Assembly: GCA_036702135.1 (NCBI GenBank)
Contig: JAUBSB010000012.1
From: Microcoleus sp. LAD1_D3
GTDB taxonomy: Bacteria > Cyanobacteriota > Cyanobacteriia > Cyanobacteriales > Microcoleaceae
DNA: 32,000 nucleotides
Reading direction: 5' to 3' (one strand)
The first letter of the stretch is position 1, and each line of letters opens with the position of its first letter. The notes below the pieces were generated by a model. The model saw only the letters and a list, made by a program, of their open reading frames with translations, searched no databases and was not told the origin of the DNA. A program made the translations under genes and the position numbers. Shown here one piece after another: positions 464 through 8,049 of this stretch.

Positions 464-676
464 ATGGGTCTAATTCGGTTGCGGGTTCGAGAACTAGCTG
501 AAGAGAAGGGTTGGACGTTGAAAGAAGTTTCTGAGCGATCGGGCATTCCTTACAGTACGGTTAGAAGCTATGCCCATTCTCCCAAGCTGGCAACGGTAGA
601 TTACACAGCTTTAAACAAAATGGCTCGCGTGTTTGATATTGCGATCGAAGATTTAGTTGAGATTTTGGAAGAGTAG
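464..676 (+). CDS. XRE/Cro-C1-type helix-turn-helix transcriptional regulator (70 aa)
   Basis: Typical short HTH_3-like pattern: LRVRELAEEKGWTLKEVSERSGIPYSTVRSYA (helix-turn-helix) followed by a short C-terminal helix. ATG start. Confidence 0.85.
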   Translation: MGLIRLRVRELAEEKGWTLKEVSERSGIPYSTVRSYAHSPKLATVDYTALNKMARVFDIAIEDLVEILEE

Positions 677-696: not shown

Positions 697-909
697 ATGG
701 GACGAATTAGGCTGCGAGTTCGAGAATTTGCTCAAGAGAAGGGTTGGAATCTGACAGAAGTCTCCAACAGAACAGGTATTCCATATACCACGATCATTAC
801 CTATGCCAATTCTCCAGGCATGGCTACCGTTGACTACACAGCTTTGGACAAGATGGCCAGTGCGTTCGATATTGCGATCGAAGATTTAGTCGAGATTTTG
901 GAACAGTAA
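697..909 (+). CDS. XRE-type HTH regulator, tandem paralog of 464-676 (52/70 residues identical by my alignment)
   Basis: Same length and architecture, 233-bp duplication register. The 3' ends are nearly identical at nucleotide level (gatattgcgatcgaagatttagt[t/c]gagattttggaa). Differences cluster in the predicted recognition helix (YSTVRSYAH vs YTTIITYAN). Confidence 0.85.
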   Translation: MGRIRLRVREFAQEKGWNLTEVSNRTGIPYTTIITYANSPGMATVDYTALDKMASAFDIAIEDLVEILEQ

Positions 910-955
910 ACTGATTGTGCGTAAACGACGGCTCTTGCGTTAGCACTTTTTACAC

Positions 956-969
956 GATACTTGCGTATA
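956..969. promoter_or_regulatory. degenerate copy of the 434-447 dyad (GATACttgCGTATa), candidate operator upstream of the STAND locus
   Basis: 11 of 14 positions identical to the 434-447 palindrome. Lies about 60 nt upstream of the probable ATG (1030) of the N-domain ORF. Confidence 0.25.
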
Positions 970-1029
970 TTGGAATTTTCCGGCTGTAGACTAGAGTCAG
1001 GAGTTGTTCAGTCTGCCGGAGTTATATCA

Positions 1030-1521
1030 ATGCCAATTAATCGTCTGTCTGACATAGAAGAAAACTTGGAATTGCTGCAAGAGCAATTAGTGGGCAAGCA
1101 GAAGGCTCTAAATTTAGCACCGCAAGAAGACAAGATCCGAATTAAACTGCAAATTCGAGAGCTACGCAAGGATATTCGGGAGCAGGAAGAGGATTATTGG
1201 CAGGTTTTCGCTCGGCAAACGAAAACAGAAGAAATTCCCGAACATGAGGCTGAGGTTATTGTTGCCGAGATTGTCGAAGAAGTTGGACAAATTGAAGTGC
1301 GGCGACAGTATCCCGATGAGGTAGTTCAGATTTTGCAGGAAATTCGGGACAAGCTAAACCAACCGGGACCGACAGCGGCCGCGAAACTTAAAGGCGTAAT
1401 CTCAAGCATTCCGCCGTTTGTAGGAATTTCCTACGAGGCAGAATTGGATACAGAGAATGTTTTACAGCAGCATTTCCCAACGTTTCGGAAATGGGCTAAG
1501 GTATTTGCAAAAAAGTCTTAG
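1030..1521 (+). CDS. coiled-coil / helical N-terminal-domain protein (163 aa), probably the N-terminal module of the downstream STAND NTPase
   Basis: The ORF-track ORF 961-1521 begins at TTG. The ATG at 1030 is preceded by GGAG 8 nt upstream. Heptad-like charged helix (LSDIEENLELLQEQLVGKQKALNL...IRIKLQIRELRKDIREQEEDYW), then an acidic helix and a short hydrophobic patch (KLKGVISSIPPFVGISYEAEL). Ends AAA AAG TCT TAG, overlapping the open NB-ARC frame. Confidence 0.7.
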   Translation: MPINRLSDIEENLELLQEQLVGKQKALNLAPQEDKIRIKLQIRELRKDIREQEEDYWQVFARQTKTEEIPEHEAEVIVAEIVEEVGQIEVRRQYPDEVVQILQEIRDKLNQPGPTAAAKLKGVISSIPPFVGISYEAELDTENVLQQHFPTFRKWAKVFAKKS

Positions 1522-1551
1522 ACCTGGAGCCCAAAACACCTAATCCAGGTT
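1509..1551 (+). promoter_or_regulatory. candidate programmed -1 ribosomal frameshift cassette (A_AAA_AAG heptamer, 6-nt spacer, 7-9 bp hairpin)
   Basis: The heptamer at 1509-1515 is phased X_XXY_YYZ in the upstream frame. The 0-frame stop is at 1519-1521. Hairpin arms are ACCTGGA 1522-1528 and TCCAGGT 1544-1550, with a 15-nt loop. The -1 frame is the NB-ARC frame, open from 1500. Confidence 0.4.
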
Positions 1552-1625
1552 TCACAAGTTTTTACCAACTATACGATATTCCCTCTGAACTCGGTTCAAA
1601 AAACTTTGTCGGACGGGATGAGGAA

Positions 1626-4046
1626 ATGCAGCAGTTGCACGGATTGTTGCAGGATGGGAGCCGCGTTGCCATTGCCGCTGCGTCGGGAATGGGCGGCATC
1701 GGCAAGACAGAATTGGCATGGCAGTATGCAAACTTTCACCGCGAACACAACACCTATCCAGCGGGGATTTGGTGGCTGTTTGTCCGGGACAACGATTTAG
1801 CGCCGCAGGTGTTGCAGAAAGCGCTGCGAATGGGAATTCAGCCGCCGGATACTCTCGACAATCTGGAGGAACGGTTGCAGTTTTGCTACGAAGAGTGGGC
1901 AAAACAAACCTCTGGCAATGCTCTGCTGGTATTGGATGATGTCAACGATTACCGCGCGGTGCAGCGGTTGCTGCCTAGAAATCCCCGCTTTAAGGTGTTG
2001 CTGACAGCGCGACAATTTGTGCCGTCGCCTGTGGGGTGTTTGCCGTTAAAAGTTTTGAAACCAGAGGCGGCGCTAAACTTGCTGCGGCTGACGGCTGGGG
2101 ATTTGCCGGGAAACGGGCTGGGACGGATTGATGCCCAGCTTGAAGATGCTCAAGCGCTTTGTCAGTGGTTGGATTATTTGCCTTTGGGCATTGAACTGGT
2201 GGGGCGCTATCTGCGGCGCAAGCGGGCGCTGTCCTTGGCAGAAATGCTGCAACGGTTGCAGAGTCAGCGATTGGAGGCACGGGCATTGCGGGAGGCGGAA
2301 GCTGGGATGACGGCTAGGCGCGGAGTGGCGGCAGCTTTTGAGTTGAGTTGGGCGGAGTTGAAATCTCCGGCGCGGACGCTGGGGTGTCTGCTGAGCGTGT
2401 TTGCTCTGGCTCCGATTCCTTGGGAGTTGGTAGCTGAGTGTTTGCCGGATTGGGATGAGGAGGAGTTGGAGGATTGTCGGGATTACGAACTGCTGGAACA
2501 AAGTTTGCTGTCCCTGGTGGAGGATGAAACCTCAGATTCGGGTCAATCTGGGCTGGTGCAGCCACGCTATCAACTTCATGGTTTGATTCGGGAGTTTTTT
2601 GCGGCAAAATTGCAGGGGCGCGCCGATACTGAGATTTTGCGGAGCAACTTTGCAGTGGTGCTGACAGCGGTGGCGAAGACGATTCCGCAGACTGTGACGC
2701 TGGAGGTGCAGGAACGGGTGAAGGAGGCGCTGCCCCATTTGGAGGTGGTGGCGGAGCAATGGTCGCATTTGCTGGAAGATAAGGATGCTGTGTGGTCTTT
2801 TACGAGCTTAGGGTGGGTTGCTCAGGGACAGAGTTCTTGGGTAGAGGCGGAGAAGTGGTTCAAAGCTTGTCTCCAGATGACACAGCAACGCTGCGGAGCC
2901 GACCATCCCGGTACGGCAACCAGTTTGAACAATCTGGCAGACCTATACCGTGCAATGGAACGCTACCCGGAGGCGGAACCGTTATTAGTGCGATCACTCG
3001 CCATCATAGAGCAACAGCTCGGAGCTGACCATCCCCAGACGGCTATGAGTTTGAACAATCTGGCAGCCCTGTACTATGCAATGGGTCGCTACGCGGAGGC
3101 GGAACCGTTATTAGTGCGATCGCTCTCTATTTACCAGCAGCAGCTAGGAGCCGACCATCTCAATACCGCTCCGACTTTGAACAATCTGGCAGAGCTATAC
3201 TGTGCAATGAGACGCTACTCGGAGGCGGAACCCTTCTTCGTGCGATCGCTCGCCATCATAGAGCAGCAGCTCGGAGCCGAGCATCCCCACACGGCTATGA
3301 GTTTGAATAATCTGGCAACTCTGTACTATGCAACGGGACGGTACGCGGAGGCGGAACCGTTATTAGTGCGATCGCTCGCCATCATAGAGCAGCAGCTAGG
3401 AACCGAGCATCCCCATACTGCTCAGAGTTTGAACAATCTGGCAGAGCTATACCGTGCAATGAGACGCTACTCGGAGGCGGAACCCTTGTTAGTGCGATCG
3501 CTCTCTATCCATGAGCAGCAGCTCGGAGCCGACCATCCCACTACGGCAAAGAGTTTGAACAATCTGGCAGGGCTATACGAGTCAATGGGACGCTACCCGG
3601 AAGCAGAACCCTTGTTAGTGCGATCGCTCTCTATCAACAAACTGCTGTTCGGAGCCGACCATCCTCATACGGCAACGAGTTTGAACAATCTGGCACATCT
3701 GTACCATGCAATGGGACGCTACCCCGAGGCGGAATTCTTGTATCTGCGATCGCTCACGATTAACGAGCAGCAGTTCGGAGCCGACCATCCTCATACGGCA
3801 GCTAGTTTGAACAATCTGGCATGGCTCTACTATGCAATGGGTCGCTACCCGGAGGCAGAACCGTTTTTTCTGGGAGCATTAGAAATCTTGTTTAACCAAT
3901 TGGGGAAGAATCATCCCGACACCCAAAGAGTTTGTAGGAATTTCATTAATTTTCTCCAGCAGGCCACATCAACTGGTCAAGACTCGCAACTTTCCCAGCA
4001 TCCAACAACGCAAGCAATGGTTAAGCGAGTTCGGGAGACGGAGTAG
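1626..4046 (+). CDS. STAND NTPase, NB-ARC domain + TPR (TPR_10/TPR_12, kinesin-light-chain-like) repeats
   Basis: Walker A GMGGIGKTELA, Walker B LLVLDDVND, LLTAR (RNBS-B-like), YLPLGIELVG (GLPL motif), then a helical/winged-helix region and eight 42-aa TPR units plus a cap. The frame is open from 1500 with no ATG/GTG/TTG before 1626, and the pre-P-loop segment NFVGRDEEMQQLH spans the first ATG. The true N-terminus is therefore probably upstream (see frameshift cassette). Confidence 0.9.
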   Translation: MQQLHGLLQDGSRVAIAAASGMGGIGKTELAWQYANFHREHNTYPAGIWWLFVRDNDLAPQVLQKALRMGIQPPDTLDNLEERLQFCYEEWAKQTSGNALLVLDDVNDYRAVQRLLPRNPRFKVLLTARQFVPSPVGCLPLKVLKPEAALNLLRLTAGDLPGNGLGRIDAQLEDAQALCQWLDYLPLGIELVGRYLRRKRALSLAEMLQRLQSQRLEARALREAEAGMTARRGVAAAFELSWAELKSPARTLGCLLSVFALAPIPWELVAECLPDWDEEELEDCRDYELLEQSLLSLVEDETSDSGQSGLVQPRYQLHGLIREFFAAKLQGRADTEILRSNFAVVLTAVAKTIPQTVTLEVQERVKEALPHLEVVAEQWSHLLEDKDAVWSFTSLGWVAQGQSSWVEAEKWFKACLQMTQQRCGADHPGTATSLNNLADLYRAMERYPEAEPLLVRSLAIIEQQLGADHPQTAMSLNNLAALYYAMGRYAEAEPLLVRSLSIYQQQLGADHLNTAPTLNNLAELYCAMRRYSEAEPFFVRSLAIIEQQLGAEHPHTAMSLNNLATLYYATGRYAEAEPLLVRSLAIIEQQLGTEHPHTAQSLNNLAELYRAMRRYSEAEPLLVRSLSIHEQQLGADHPTTAKSLNNLAGLYESMGRYPEAEPLLVRSLSINKLLFGADHPHTATSLNNLAHLYHAMGRYPEAEFLYLRSLTINEQQFGADHPHTAASLNNLAWLYYAMGRYPEAEPFFLGALEILFNQLGKNHPDTQRVCRNFINFLQQATSTGQDSQLSQHPTTQAMVKRVRETE
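2895..3902 (+). repeat. 8 tandem 126-bp (42-codon) coding repeats, plus a degenerate ninth unit to about 3960
   Basis: Unit starts fall at 2895, 3021, 3147, 3273, 3399, 3525, 3651 and 3777, in exact 126-bp register. Consensus is GADHPxTAxSLNNLAxLYxxMGRYxEAEPLLVRSLxIxEQQL. Most units carry a HIP1 site (gtGCGATCGCtc). Confidence 0.95.
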
Positions 4047-4208
4047 CTGTTACTGCTAGAACGATTGTTGCCAATTTCTCACTCAAATTTTTGGCGCATC
4101 GCTTCATCTACAAAACTCCAGTTTCCAGACAGGAAGACAATGATTTGCAATTCGTCGCCTGCGAAAATGTAAACTTCATCGCTTTGTGGATCACAGCGGA
4201 ATAGTGAG

Positions 4209-4454
4209 TTACACAACCTCTTCTAATTCAGGAATATGTTCAGCTTCATAGTTTTCGATTAAAACACCAATAACGTCCATCATCGAAGCCAGGGGATGAC
4301 TTTCATCCTCGCCCACTCGCTCGATAAGGCTATCTAGTAGTTCGACTAAACGCTCGTATTCCTGTTCGGTGTGAGGGACAAAAACCATTTTAGCAATGGA
4401 TGACCAAGCACCAATTGTTTGATCGAGATTAAGACTTTGCATCATTCTTTCCAC
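4209..4454 (-). CDS. HigA-like antitoxin, N-terminal (toxin-binding) domain only; no HTH domain
   Basis: Immediately downstream of, and overlapping, higB. An alternative ATG at 4445 gives the classic ATGA stop/start overlap. The sequence (TEQEYERLVELLDSLIE...DESHPLASMMDVIGVLIENYE) resembles the N-terminal half of E. coli HigA as I recall it. The ORF stops where the HTH would begin. Confidence 0.6.
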   Translation of the reverse strand: MERMMQSLNLDQTIGAWSSIAKMVFVPHTEQEYERLVELLDSLIERVGEDESHPLASMMDVIGVLIENYEAEHIPELEEVV

Positions 4455-4729
4455 CTTTCTTCATCGTATTCTGAGTGAGTTAATACAGCTCGAATGTAGA
4501 CTTTGTGCCGATTGTAATGAATAGCAGCAATGAGTCTAACTTTATTCCCTCCAATGTTGAAAACAGTCAATTTCCCGACTCGATCCGCCGATGGAAATAT
4601 TTCGCGGAGTTCAACGAATGTCGCAAATTCATTTTGTTTGACGAGTTTGTACCACTGAACCAAGGCATTTGTTGTATCTGGATGAAGTTTAGCAAACTCA
4701 TTCAGCCGTTTGCGGGTGATCACGTGCAT
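4442..4729 (-). CDS. higB: type II toxin HigB (RelE-superfamily mRNA interferase)
   Basis: MHVITRKRLNEFAKLHPD...FPSADRVGKLTVFNIGGNKVRLIAAIHYNRHKVYIRAVLTHSEYD matches the E. coli HigB/YgjN pattern (MHLITQKAL...VFNVGGNELRVVAMV...YIREVMTHKEYD). Toxin-first gene order is typical of hig loci. Confidence 0.85.
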   Translation of the reverse strand: MHVITRKRLNEFAKLHPDTTNALVQWYKLVKQNEFATFVELREIFPSADRVGKLTVFNIGGNKVRLIAAIHYNRHKVYIRAVLTHSEYDEERWKE

Positions 4730-4864
4730 ATTAATTTACTCATGCCTCCTCCTCTTTAATTTTTGGCGTTAGTCCTGTCAACGAAGCATCGAGCCAGATT
4801 CTTCGCTTCGCTCAAAATGACAGAATTACCTTAAAATGCGTAAATCCAGTTTATCAAACTCCCG

Positions 4865-6431: not shown

Positions 6432-6606
6432 TTTTTTTAAGAATTGTTAACGTTCTTTTGTTATTATGAGCCGATCGACTGCCACAATTTACTCTTGAAC
6501 CCCTCAAAGAATATCTATTTAACGAGCCGCGAAGACGCGAAGGGCGCCAAGAAAGAGAAAGAAGAAGATAGGTAATGCCTTGTTCGGTTCAGGAGTAGGC
6601 TGCATA

Positions 6607-8049
6607 ATGGGTTACATGAAATGTCCAAGATGCGAATCAGACGAAGTTCGTAAAAACGGCCGTCCCAACGGGCACCAGCGGTATCTTTGCAAAGCTTGCC
6701 GCAAACATTTTTTTGAGCGGTTGAGTCCGCAGTCTTTCAGTCGCCAATGCACCGAAACAGAGTTAAGCGAAGCTATCCCGCAAGGAATCGAGTCTGCAAC
6801 AACCACAGAGTCCGGCGGGATTTCGATTTTGCTGTTAGATGCCGAAAATCTGAAACTTAAGGTTAATACAGAACAATTCTTAGCGGGTTTGTGCGACTAT
6901 CCCCTGCAAGTTAAAATTGCTTTTGCTAACTGGAAAAACCCAAGTATCGGCAAGTTGGATGCTGAACTTTATGATCGCGGTTACGAACTGATTCACGTTC
7001 CGGGCGGTGCTAATAGTGCGGATGGTAAAATGATTGCTTTTGGCGCTGCTATTTTATATCGATATCGGGATGTAAAACAAGTTTTTGTCTGTTCTTCGGA
7101 TGGTTTGTTAAATCATCTTTGCAATCAGTTGCAAAATCAGGGATTGACTGTCTTTCGGGTGCGTCGGCAAAATTCTGTTTTGTCTGTAGAAAACTGTCAG
7201 AATGGTGAGAGCAAGCACTATTCTTGCGAAAGAGAAGAGGAAATCCCTAGTTTTGAAGAATTGGCTAATCAAGTTACAGAGTTGTTGAAGGCTGAACACA
7301 AATCTATTGATGAGCGAATCGCTCGTTTTTCTACTGTGGCTGAGCTTTTTCAAGAGCGCCACACTATTGTTTTCCCTTCTACAACTTCCCCTGCTGCACT
7401 GTCGGATTCAGCAGAAGACAAAATTTCTTCTGGGACTAAAGAGTGTGTAACTCCTCTTGTCGTGGATCTAGATATTGAATCCCAAAAAGTTCCCGAAACC
7501 AAGTCAGTCAATTCAATTGGGATTAATTCGCTGGATGATTTAGAAAAGATACTTGTAGCAATGATTGCGAAAGCGATAGTTGAGTTAAAACAAAATGCTA
7601 TTTTCGTCACAAGAATCAAGAAACAATTTTATACGAAATATCAGTGTCATGCCGATTTACTTGTGAAAAAGTTTTTGCCTGATTCTAGTCTAATTAATTA
7701 TTTTAAATCGCGTCCGTCTGTTTTCAAAATGGAATTGCTCGGTAACGAACATCAAGTGGCGATCGCTCCCAAAGCAGCAGCAGCTTCAAAAACAGATCCC
7801 TCAGCCGCCCTGGAAGCATCTATAGAAAATATTGTACTGGCATTAACTGCTAAATCTCCAGGCAATTACATTGGCATTAACCAGGTAGCCACCGAATTTC
7901 ACAAGCAATACGGTCAACCGATTACTAAAAAGCTGCAATCGCTGCATTTGGGTAGCAATTTTTACGATTTTTTGCAGTCATGCCAAAAATTTAAAGTTCA
8001 GAAAAAGGGTAAGGAGCATCAAGTGGCGATCGCCAAAGTTACGGATTAA
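6607..8049 (+). CDS. Zn-ribbon + NYN (LabA-like, PIN-fold RNase) + two OST-HTH/LOTUS domains
   Basis: CPRC...x17...CKAC zinc ribbon of IS1 InsA-N type. NYN motifs ILLLDAENL, GGANSADGKMI, VFVCSSDGLLNHL...GLTVF. Two C-terminal modules each end in G.EHQVAIA. Start is ambiguous (TTG 6580, ATG 6607 or 6616). Confidence 0.8.
   Translation: MGYMKCPRCESDEVRKNGRPNGHQRYLCKACRKHFFERLSPQSFSRQCTETELSEAIPQGIESATTTESGGISILLLDAENLKLKVNTEQFLAGLCDYPLQVKIAFANWKNPSIGKLDAELYDRGYELIHVPGGANSADGKMIAFGAAILYRYRDVKQVFVCSSDGLLNHLCNQLQNQGLTVFRVRRQNSVLSVENCQNGESKHYSCEREEEIPSFEELANQVTELLKAEHKSIDERIARFSTVAELFQERHTIVFPSTTSPAALSDSAEDKISSGTKECVTPLVVDLDIESQKVPETKSVNSIGINSLDDLEKILVAMIAKAIVELKQNAIFVTRIKKQFYTKYQCHADLLVKKFLPDSSLINYFKSRPSVFKMELLGNEHQVAIAPKAAAASKTDPSAALEASIENIVLALTAKSPGNYIGINQVATEFHKQYGQPITKKLQSLHLGSNFYDFLQSCQKFKVQKKGKEHQVAIAKVTD

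Follow-up and report, generated by a model that had tools for sequence, protein, structure and literature searches.

Proven -1 frameshifts in cellular genes of bacteria are, to our knowledge, very few, with dnaX and copA as the usual examples and nearly all others belonging to insertion sequences (IS) or phages. In Escherichia coli dnaX, a cellular gene yielding two proteins that share an N-terminus, the slippery heptamer A_AAA_AAG is followed about 6 nt downstream by a stem-loop and preceded by a Shine-Dalgarno (SD)-like element (PMC3711429, PMC6771820). In the orfA/orfAB genes of the IS3 family (IS2, IS150, IS911) the same heptamer lies near the orfA stop codon and ahead of a stem-loop or pseudoknot, and the frameshift yields a long fusion, whereas ribosomes that stay in frame make a small protein consisting of the N-terminal domain (PMC2246112, PMC4066793). 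The same elements are found in the 32,000-nucleotide stretch of DNA analysed in this study (the window), from contig JAUBSB010000012.1 of Microcoleus sp. LAD1_D3, where the open reading frame (ORF) of a small helical domain, here called X, ends in A_AAA_AAG and a stop codon just ahead of a predicted hairpin and overlaps the frame of an NB-ARC NTPase. The arrangement is very probably a programmed -1 ribosomal frameshift of the dnaX/IS3 type, which would produce both free X and an X-NTPase fusion from one mRNA.

The locus departs from each of its counterparts in some respect. The shifted ribosome in dnaX stops almost at once and the frameshift product is the shorter one, whereas here a shifted ribosome would read 843 more codons; in addition, the SD-like element is only partly conserved here. 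Unlike the IS3 elements, the locus is a syntenic chromosomal one without transposase domains, and the fused partner is a STAND NTPase. The lambda G/GT tail chaperones resemble it in making a short protein and a -1 fusion at a set ratio, although the proteins and their biology are otherwise different. Levin, Hendrix & Casjens reportedly described in 1993 the lambda G/GT slippery sequence as GGGAAAG, the same heptamer as in a Calothrix lineage of the family studied here (L036); lambda G/GT is not known to need a downstream structure, in contrast to that lineage, which has an 11-bp hairpin. Meydan et al. are said to have reported in 2017 that -1 recoding of E. coli copA releases a free N-terminal domain, CopA(Z), beside the full-length protein; of the two copA proteins it is the short one that arises by frameshifting, and both heptamer and stimulator differ from those found here. 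Long and short tail-chaperone isoforms made by programmed frameshifting have been mentioned elsewhere (PMC13581612), and the cyanobacterial element IS895 is listed among frameshifting IS elements (PMC2246112). According to Tsuchihashi & Brown (1992), as cited in PMC4066793, the efficiency of A_AAA_AAG in E. coli depends on the lack of tRNA-Lys(CUU), which leaves AAG to tRNA-Lys(UUU) alone.

X itself is comparable to the domains of effector-associated domain (EAD) systems, in which a small domain is carried both by varied effectors and by the N-terminus of an NTPase (Kaur et al., PMC7159879, PMC8195603). Within those systems the two adaptor copies come from separate genes, whereas here one gene would supply both, and X, unlike the described EAD/bDLD domains, matches none of their models. 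TRADD-N proteins are found in two-gene neighbourhoods with AP-ATPase-TPR genes (PMC8195603). The word 'frameshift' is absent from PMC7159879 and PMC8195603, and frameshifting of STAND or nucleotide-binding leucine-rich repeat (NLR) genes is absent from the recoding surveys and reviews and the bacterial NLR papers checked; recoding in a cellular NLR-like gene looks undescribed within the searchable literature. The signal itself is canonical, and what would be new is its attachment to a portable adaptor domain across cyanobacterial NLR-like systems.

The cassette in the window

On re-reading, the coordinates given in the original prediction for the end of X, its stop, the heptamer and its phase, the opening of the -1 frame and ATG 1626 were all correct (Table 1). 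X has GGAG 9 nt upstream of its ATG and closes with GCA AAA AAG TCT TAG. The NB-ARC frame is open from 1500 to 4046, its earliest ATG, GTG or TTG being ATG 1626, and its ORF shares only 19 nt with X; since a TAA ends that frame just upstream, a productive change of frame is possible solely within 1500-1518. The distance of 9 nt from TAA to heptamer recurs in the Microcoleus loci checked and in three distant lineages (L027, L028, L034). A -1 slip would give a product of 1005 aa, as against the approximately 1005 aa originally expected, in which ...KVFAKK is joined to VLDLEPKTPNPGF so that VLDLEPK follows AKK; the peptides VLDLEPK and TPNPGFTSFYQLYDIPSELGSK are coded in the -1 frame upstream of every start codon there. 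NB-ARC was recognized by Pfam PF00931 (53.4 bits against a cut-off of 23.5; E = 2.8e-14; residues 35-256 of the -1 ORF), and the C-terminal TPR array by TPR_12 (E = 7e-147) and TPR_10 (E = 2e-105), with nine stretches each. The Pfam match begins at residue 35, or about nt 1617, and ATG 1626 lies inside the FVGRDEEM motif; the sole canonical internal start would therefore clip the domain, which agrees with the earlier claim.

Table 1. Positions of features of the X/NB-ARC locus and its upstream genes in the window
Feature	Position	Strand	Details
X (0-frame ORF)	1030-1521	+	ATG 1030; 163 aa; all-alpha domain
TAA ending the -1 (NB-ARC) frame	1497-1499	+	9 nt 5' of heptamer
SD-like AAGG	1498-1501	+	7 nt 5' of heptamer
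Slippery heptamer A_AAA_AAG	1509-1515	+	X_XXY_YYZ phase of the X frame, codons GCA AAA AAG
-1 frame ORF entered by the predicted slip	1515-4046	+	843 codons: linker, NB-ARC NTPase, TPR array
0-frame stop TAG	1519-1521	+	one codon past heptamer
Stem-loop (predicted)	1520-1528 paired with 1544-1552	+	9 bp, 15-nt loop
First canonical start of the NB-ARC frame	1626-1628	+	within conserved FVGRDEEM motif
Walker A GMGGIGKT of NB-ARC	1686-1709	+	read from sequence
HTH_26 (Cro/C1-type) gene, first of two tandem paralogues	464-676	+	70 aa; Pfam E = 1.6e-8
HTH_26 (Cro/C1-type) gene, second of two tandem paralogues	697-909	+	70 aa; Pfam E = 9.5e-8

In the proposed mechanism, ribosomes would begin at ATG 1030 and make the helical X domain until tRNA-Lys occupies AAA in the P site and AAG in the A site, at which point a fraction of them would slip by -1 on the heptamer. 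The hairpin 4-6 nt downstream probably aids the slip, and the SD-like AAGG and the adjacent stop may also do so. Ribosomes that do not slip would end at TAG 1519 and release free X, while those that slip would pass through a short linker into the NB-ARC-TPR frame and complete an X-NB-ARC-TPR protein. Because the NB-ARC frame has no start of its own before its conserved N-terminal motif, the slip would be the route to a complete NTPase. We infer slippage in vivo from the anatomy of the cassette and its conservation.

The heptamer by itself proves nothing, since A_AAA_AAG occurs 14 times in the window (8 copies on the + strand and 6 on the - strand); what lies beyond chance is its phase, its place in the short ORF overlap and its conservation. 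A second in-phase heptamer, A_AAA_AAC (TCA AAA AAC), is present in the NB-ARC frame at 1598-1604, where a -1 slip would meet a stop after 5 codons. Its wobble A varies among loci (TCA/TCC), providing an internal control, and for lack of this conservation the second heptamer is probably non-functional.

Conservation among Microcoleus-type loci

The window was compared with 24 related loci from separate genome and metagenome assemblies, giving 25 Microcoleus-type sequences; the scan of the metagenome collection gave 7 loci. Gene order is shared and consists of an HTH_26 array, X, NB-ARC-TPR, sometimes HigBA, and then UbiD. Identity across the loci amounts to 95-100% for UbiD, 75-94% for X and 62-97% for the NB-ARC protein in its N-terminal part, and A_AAA_AAG with TAG one codon on is invariant in 25/25 sequences. 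Because UbiD is nearly unchanged while X and NB-ARC have diverged, the cassette is the fixed point within a fast-evolving locus on a nearly identical background, a pattern seen in many immune genes. The codon preceding AAA AAG differs (GCA, CCA, ACA or AAA), with A always as its third base. All nine wobble positions of the heptamer and stem are invariant (six of them in the stem) compared to 53% variable third positions in the flanks (P about 0.001, relatedness being ignored). In 22 of the 25 sequences the -1 ORF is 730-930 aa long or continues to the end of the contig; the other three are L014, where NB-ARC is interrupted, L021, where the frame is cut short at 142 aa, and L008, which lies at a contig end.

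This conservation also bears on the possibility of an artefact or of decay, in which an under-called homopolymer (a true A7) or a recent inactivating frameshift would have split a single gene. Homopolymers are prone to indels, and the NB-ARC part is truly decayed in L014 and L021; however, A6G is found in 25 separate assemblies, including the complete genome CP031705, as well as in finished plasmids of other genera, and none of the 25 has A7. The -1 ORF of 843 codons is intact and under purifying selection (pN/pS, the ratio of non-synonymous to synonymous polymorphism, of 0.37 for the NB-ARC domain). When residues 1-240 of the predicted fusion were used as a protein query, 389 hits were obtained, of which the best 120 were almost all 163-aa proteins from Microcoleus and from soil or biocrust metagenomes, with identities of 75-94%; a length of 163 aa is shared by more than 110 protein clusters, and nearly all end in ...AKKS, with a few in ...KKP. 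No fused ORF was present among these best 120 clusters, and since coverage of the junction-spanning query never exceeded 68%, none of these close relatives reads through the junction. Both of these alternatives, which the original prediction had left standing, are effectively excluded by the comparative data, and an error or decay at this site is now extremely improbable.

Selection on the sequence upstream of ATG 1626 was assessed from pN/pS on 21 aligned loci. The 17 codons at 1575-1625, which encode DIPSELGSKNFVGRDEE, have a pN/pS of 0.016 in the NB-ARC frame compared to 3.9 and 6.0 in the other two frames, and X as a whole has a value of 0.46. DIPSELGSKNFVGRDEE belongs to an IPxxLG...FVGRExE motif that lies upstream of the P-loop also in lineages less than 50% identical. 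The linker at 1527-1574 is less constrained (pN/pS 0.61) but stays open, and its sole indel measures 12 nt, so the frame is kept. On this pattern of substitution, the region upstream of the first ATG is evidently translated in the NB-ARC frame and under strong purifying selection.

These values are difficult to reconcile with two ordinary genes, in which the NB-ARC protein would start for itself at ATG 1626, ATT 1578 or CTG 1524, perhaps by termination-reinitiation, and the heptamer would be kept only for a Lys-Lys tail that X needs. Gene callers do annotate two genes everywhere, and GAGG lies 2-3 nt upstream of ATG 1626, but a start there would leave untranslated the most constrained codons of the locus. 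No ATG, GTG or TTG precedes codons 1575-1625 in the 13 Microcoleus-type sequences computed (the window and 12 loci), in each of which the first canonical start of the -1 frame is the ATG at +117, and none precedes the FVGRDEEM-type motif in the -1 frame of the distant L028/L029 and L033, where the Met of this motif is replaced by Leu. The alternative start CTG 1524 reads CGG in L006 and L017. In addition, the need for a Lys-Lys tail fails to explain why the codons are invariably AAA-AAG and why the codon ahead of them ends in A whether it encodes Ala, Pro, Thr or Lys. Independent initiation of this kind is therefore considered unlikely, and a -1 frameshift continues to be the preferred explanation.

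The predicted hairpin begins 4 nt after the heptamer when counted from the full stem and 6 nt after it when counted from the 7-bp G+C core. Folding of the window sequence gave -11.6 kcal/mol (z = -2.9), with 3/200 shuffles folding as well, and bore out the suggestion that the stem could be extended to 9 bp around a 15-nt loop. Among 20 distinct Microcoleus-type sequences, 98.9% of the cells in the stem are paired, with two A-U to G-U changes and one mismatch as the only alterations, whereas the loop varies freely and includes non-synonymous changes; in L022 the stem is two pairs longer (-20.5 kcal/mol). An Rfam scan of 1300-1800 matched no known frameshift element. The hairpin was also considered as a transcription terminator and rejected, there being no terminator-like site on the + strand; a terminator-like site on the minus strand (1537..1515, with a G-U-rich stem and TTTTTT) most likely arises incidentally from the A6 run and the variable loop. 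The SD-like AAGG is present where it had been noted, although its conservation is partial, since the position reads AAAG in 7/24 aligned Microcoleus-type sequences. SD-like motifs are found 6-13 nt upstream of the heptamer in 4/5 other lineages inspected, and AAGG is a possible upstream stimulator.

Two loci differ from the remainder in the content of this region. In L021, the slot matching positions 900-4800 of the window (4569-6586 of L021) contains a CyanoTRADDas_TM gene on the minus strand and a 387-aa TRADD-N-X fusion, which ends in the same cassette (A_AAA_AAG TCC TAG) with a hairpin; the NB-ARC frame behind it is the one truncated at 142 aa, and HigBA is absent. The interval from the HTH_26 array to ubiD has the look of an island that varies between strains. 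In L014, unrelated sequence at 3480-4140 interrupts the NB-ARC frame just past the ATG, and a diverged second X-like fragment (57% identity) lies about 450 nt downstream, a layout that suggests recombination between X-bearing loci.

Distant lineages and the X domain

The X family comprises about 250 representative clusters, and DNA was examined for nine lineages. In the eight lineages beyond the Microcoleus type, with X at 34-58% identity, X ends in a heptamer with a stop 0-1 codons later and usually a hairpin (Table 2); the heptamer is A_AAA_AAG in seven of them and G_GGA_AAG in L036 alone. Spacers of 4-6 nt precede the stems of L022 in the Microcoleus group and of L028, L030 and L036. The stems of different lineages occupy one position with unrelated sequences; this is not column-by-column covariation but supports a structural role for the predicted hairpin. 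The recurrence of the cassette in these lineages, together with the retention of heptamer, stop and hairpin in the 24 loci, strengthens the case for the dnaX/IS-like -1 frameshift that was first proposed from the window. In L036 the protein tail is EGK rather than KK while a canonical X_XXY_YYZ heptamer is kept, which argues that it is the slippery pattern, not the Lys-Lys tail, that selection maintains, contrary to what two separate genes would require.

Table 2. Cassettes in X-family lineages beyond the Microcoleus type
Lineage	End of X	Predicted stem-loop	-1 ORF or partner
L027	GCA AAA AAG TAG	-17.9 kcal/mol	NB-ARC-TPR, 732 aa
L028/L029	GCA AAA AAG TAA	12-bp stem, -18.5 kcal/mol, z -3.5	..FVGREQE (contig ends)
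L030	GAA AAA AAG TAA	13-bp stem, -25.7 kcal/mol, z -5.4	nSTAND1
L031	CGA AAA AAG TAG	-22.3 kcal/mol (plain minimum free energy, no shuffle control)	NACHT/AAA_16-TPR
L033	TTA AAA AAG TCG TAG	-24.9 kcal/mol (plain minimum free energy, no shuffle control)	NB-ARC-like
L034, Crinalium PCC 9333 plasmid	GCA AAA AAG TTG TAG	-13.6 kcal/mol, z -1.9	NACHT; first start +150 nt
L035, Nostoc C057 plasmid	A9G TAA	no adjacent hairpin	transmembrane (TM) + FGE-sulfatase domain
L036, Calothrix PCC 7716 plasmid	GAG GGA AAG TAA (G_GGA_AAG)	11-bp stem, -26.2 kcal/mol, z -5.2	nSTAND-WD40, 1242 aa

The fused architecture exists in nature, since the predicted trans-frame product of L036 is collinear through the junction, at 53% identity, with the single-ORF protein P0192 (1169 aa). 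Uninterrupted orthologues had been named in advance as a finding that would speak against recoding; one distant homologue of this kind does exist in P0192, while close ones are lacking among the best 120 clusters, and P0192, which shows the fused architecture to be real, is no argument against recoding in the interrupted majority. A second candidate for an in-frame X-NB-ARC homologue, P0175, was rejected because its DNA (L033) contains the real X tail (..FPTFGKW..KKS before the stop) in another frame; P0175 is the result of an upstream indel running into the cassette, the true end of X being TTA AAA AAG TCG TAG.

The lineages also allow transcriptional slippage to be considered, in which RNA polymerase would add an A within A6 and some mRNAs, now with A7, would encode the fusion directly. 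The product would be identical (...AKKVLDLE...), and L035 has a run of nine A, a length that supports slippage, as in the A9 of Thermus dnaX (PMC3711429). By contrast, the run is A6 in the window and in most lineages and GGGAAAG in L036, whereas realignment sites for polymerase slippage have n > 7 for A runs (PMC3711429), and a polymerase has no need of the strict X_XXY_YYZ phase, of the terminal G or of the hairpin 4-6 nt downstream, all of which belong to slippage by the ribosome. Slippage by the polymerase is thus plausible only at the A9 site of L035 and very unlikely as the general explanation, ribosomal frameshifting being preferred elsewhere.

It is also important to note several observations that weigh against a programmed frameshift. 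The 24 loci belong to closely related genomes and are not independent. Within the Microcoleus group the stem is almost invariant and no pair is altered on both sides, so that of the ortholog comparison originally proposed, conservation of heptamer, stop and hairpin was found and compensatory change was not. L006 and L017 have a mid-stem mismatch, with which the predicted hairpin is weaker (-7.6 kcal/mol, z -0.4), and L013 is a counter-example with A_AAA_AAC followed by an NTPase remnant. As two separate genes would predict, a GTG or TTG is found 21-54 nt past the heptamer in L027, L030, L031 and L036, where independent initiation is possible, and a KK terminus can exist without recoding, as in L026, where a 660-aa DUF8370/DUF8371-X protein (308-2290) has the non-canonical end GCG AAA AAG TGA with no downstream partner in the -1 frame; the locus may have decayed, or its product may be a free effector-X protein. 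On the Nostoc sp. C057 plasmid p057_E (L035, 4372-5355), X ends in CTA AAA AAA AAG TAA, without an adjacent hairpin and ahead of a -1 frame that codes for a transmembrane segment and a formylglycine-generating-enzyme (FGS) domain instead of an NTPase, and may be a transcriptional-slippage variant of the same theme. The L032 subfamily is without a KK terminus, and its contig ends too early to show the downstream part.

A profile search identified 253 X-family proteins among 50%-identity representatives. Where the match reaches the end of the X profile, X is at the extreme C-terminus in 91 of 99 representatives, and 56 of those 91 tails end in KK (45) or KKx (11), compared to about 0.5% predicted from Lys content. 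The modules found N-terminal to X include TRADD-N, SNF2 helicase, STAS-LRR-Roc-COR, NACHT-TPR and DUF8370/8371, while P0192 and P0217, both encoded by a single ORF, and the predicted trans-frame products have X on the N-terminal side of an NTPase. P0217 (1315 aa), in which an N-terminal X is fused in frame to the NTPase, ends in ...RYFPTTPAKKV, similar to the FPTF...KK tail of X, and its C-terminus may carry a second X-tail and cassette. An AlphaFold model of X built from 76 sequences has eight helices in a bundle with a long N-terminal helical hairpin (predicted local distance difference test, pLDDT, 83), an earlier model from a shallow alignment having been poor (pLDDT 64). A PDB fold search with the deeper model found no neighbour at E < 0.5, and X matched nothing in Pfam (E <= 1) or NCBIfam; EAD9 was the best of the Pfam EAD/Death-like models for one X homologue, at E = 0.15. 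The PADLOC model Aga_Helical-REase was rejected as an identity because the match is faint (E = 1.8e-4), and X was left unnamed.

There is a potential explanation for why X would be made in two forms. Because X is combined with other domains in the manner that Kaur et al. describe for effector-associated domains, it would be a homotypic adaptor or oligomerization module that is needed both free and tethered to an NTPase; the free form of some relatives is joined to an effector, for example TRADD-N. Provided that this adaptor role holds, recoding would set the ratio of free to tethered copies from one mRNA. It is rather likely, though less so than the frameshift itself, that X and the cassette together form a portable cyanobacterial module by which NLR-like and other conflict systems make free and tethered adaptor at a ratio set in the RNA; the modules served would be NB-ARC-TPR, NACHT, nSTAND1-WD40 and TM-FGE, with a free form such as TRADD-N-X. 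More speculatively, the rate of slipping at Lys codons could track the state of translation or of tRNA-Lys during infection and so tune the level of the sensor.

Should these readings be true, a whole family with hundreds of 50%-identity clusters would be added to the cellular -1 frameshifts, in a gene class that comprises the bacterial STAND/NLR-like systems for immunity and cell death in multicellular cyanobacteria. A single recoded gene would account for what is annotated as a 'hypothetical 163-aa protein' and an 'N-terminally short NB-ARC protein', and present catalogues would be lacking an N-terminal domain of the NTPases. The proportion of adaptor to sensor would have a testable model, and the position of TRADD-N and other effectors directly upstream of AP-ATPase genes would be accounted for. 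A portable module would represent a new design principle for NLR-like immunity in prokaryotes, and its frameshift would join the very small number in bacterial cellular genes that extend over a whole family.

Neighbouring genes

An HTH_26 array of 1-5 copies lies upstream of X in nearly all syntenic loci. The copies are near-identical, and their number varies from 1 to 5 on backgrounds that are otherwise 99% identical, with two in the window, five in L001 and L009 and four in L021. The array might be a regulator or a part of the system. The window contains no tRNA genes. Between NB-ARC-TPR and ubiD, the minus strand at 4209-4729 encodes a toxin recognized by Pfam as HigB (E = 2.6e-30) and, upstream of it, a small partner that is presumably HigA; some syntenic loci have this pair and others lack it. 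Further downstream, positions 6580-8049 encode a 489-aa protein with an InsA-type zinc ribbon, a NYN domain (predicted RNase) and a long uncharacterized C-terminal part, and L021 has a shorter Zn_ribbon_InsA gene at the matching position.

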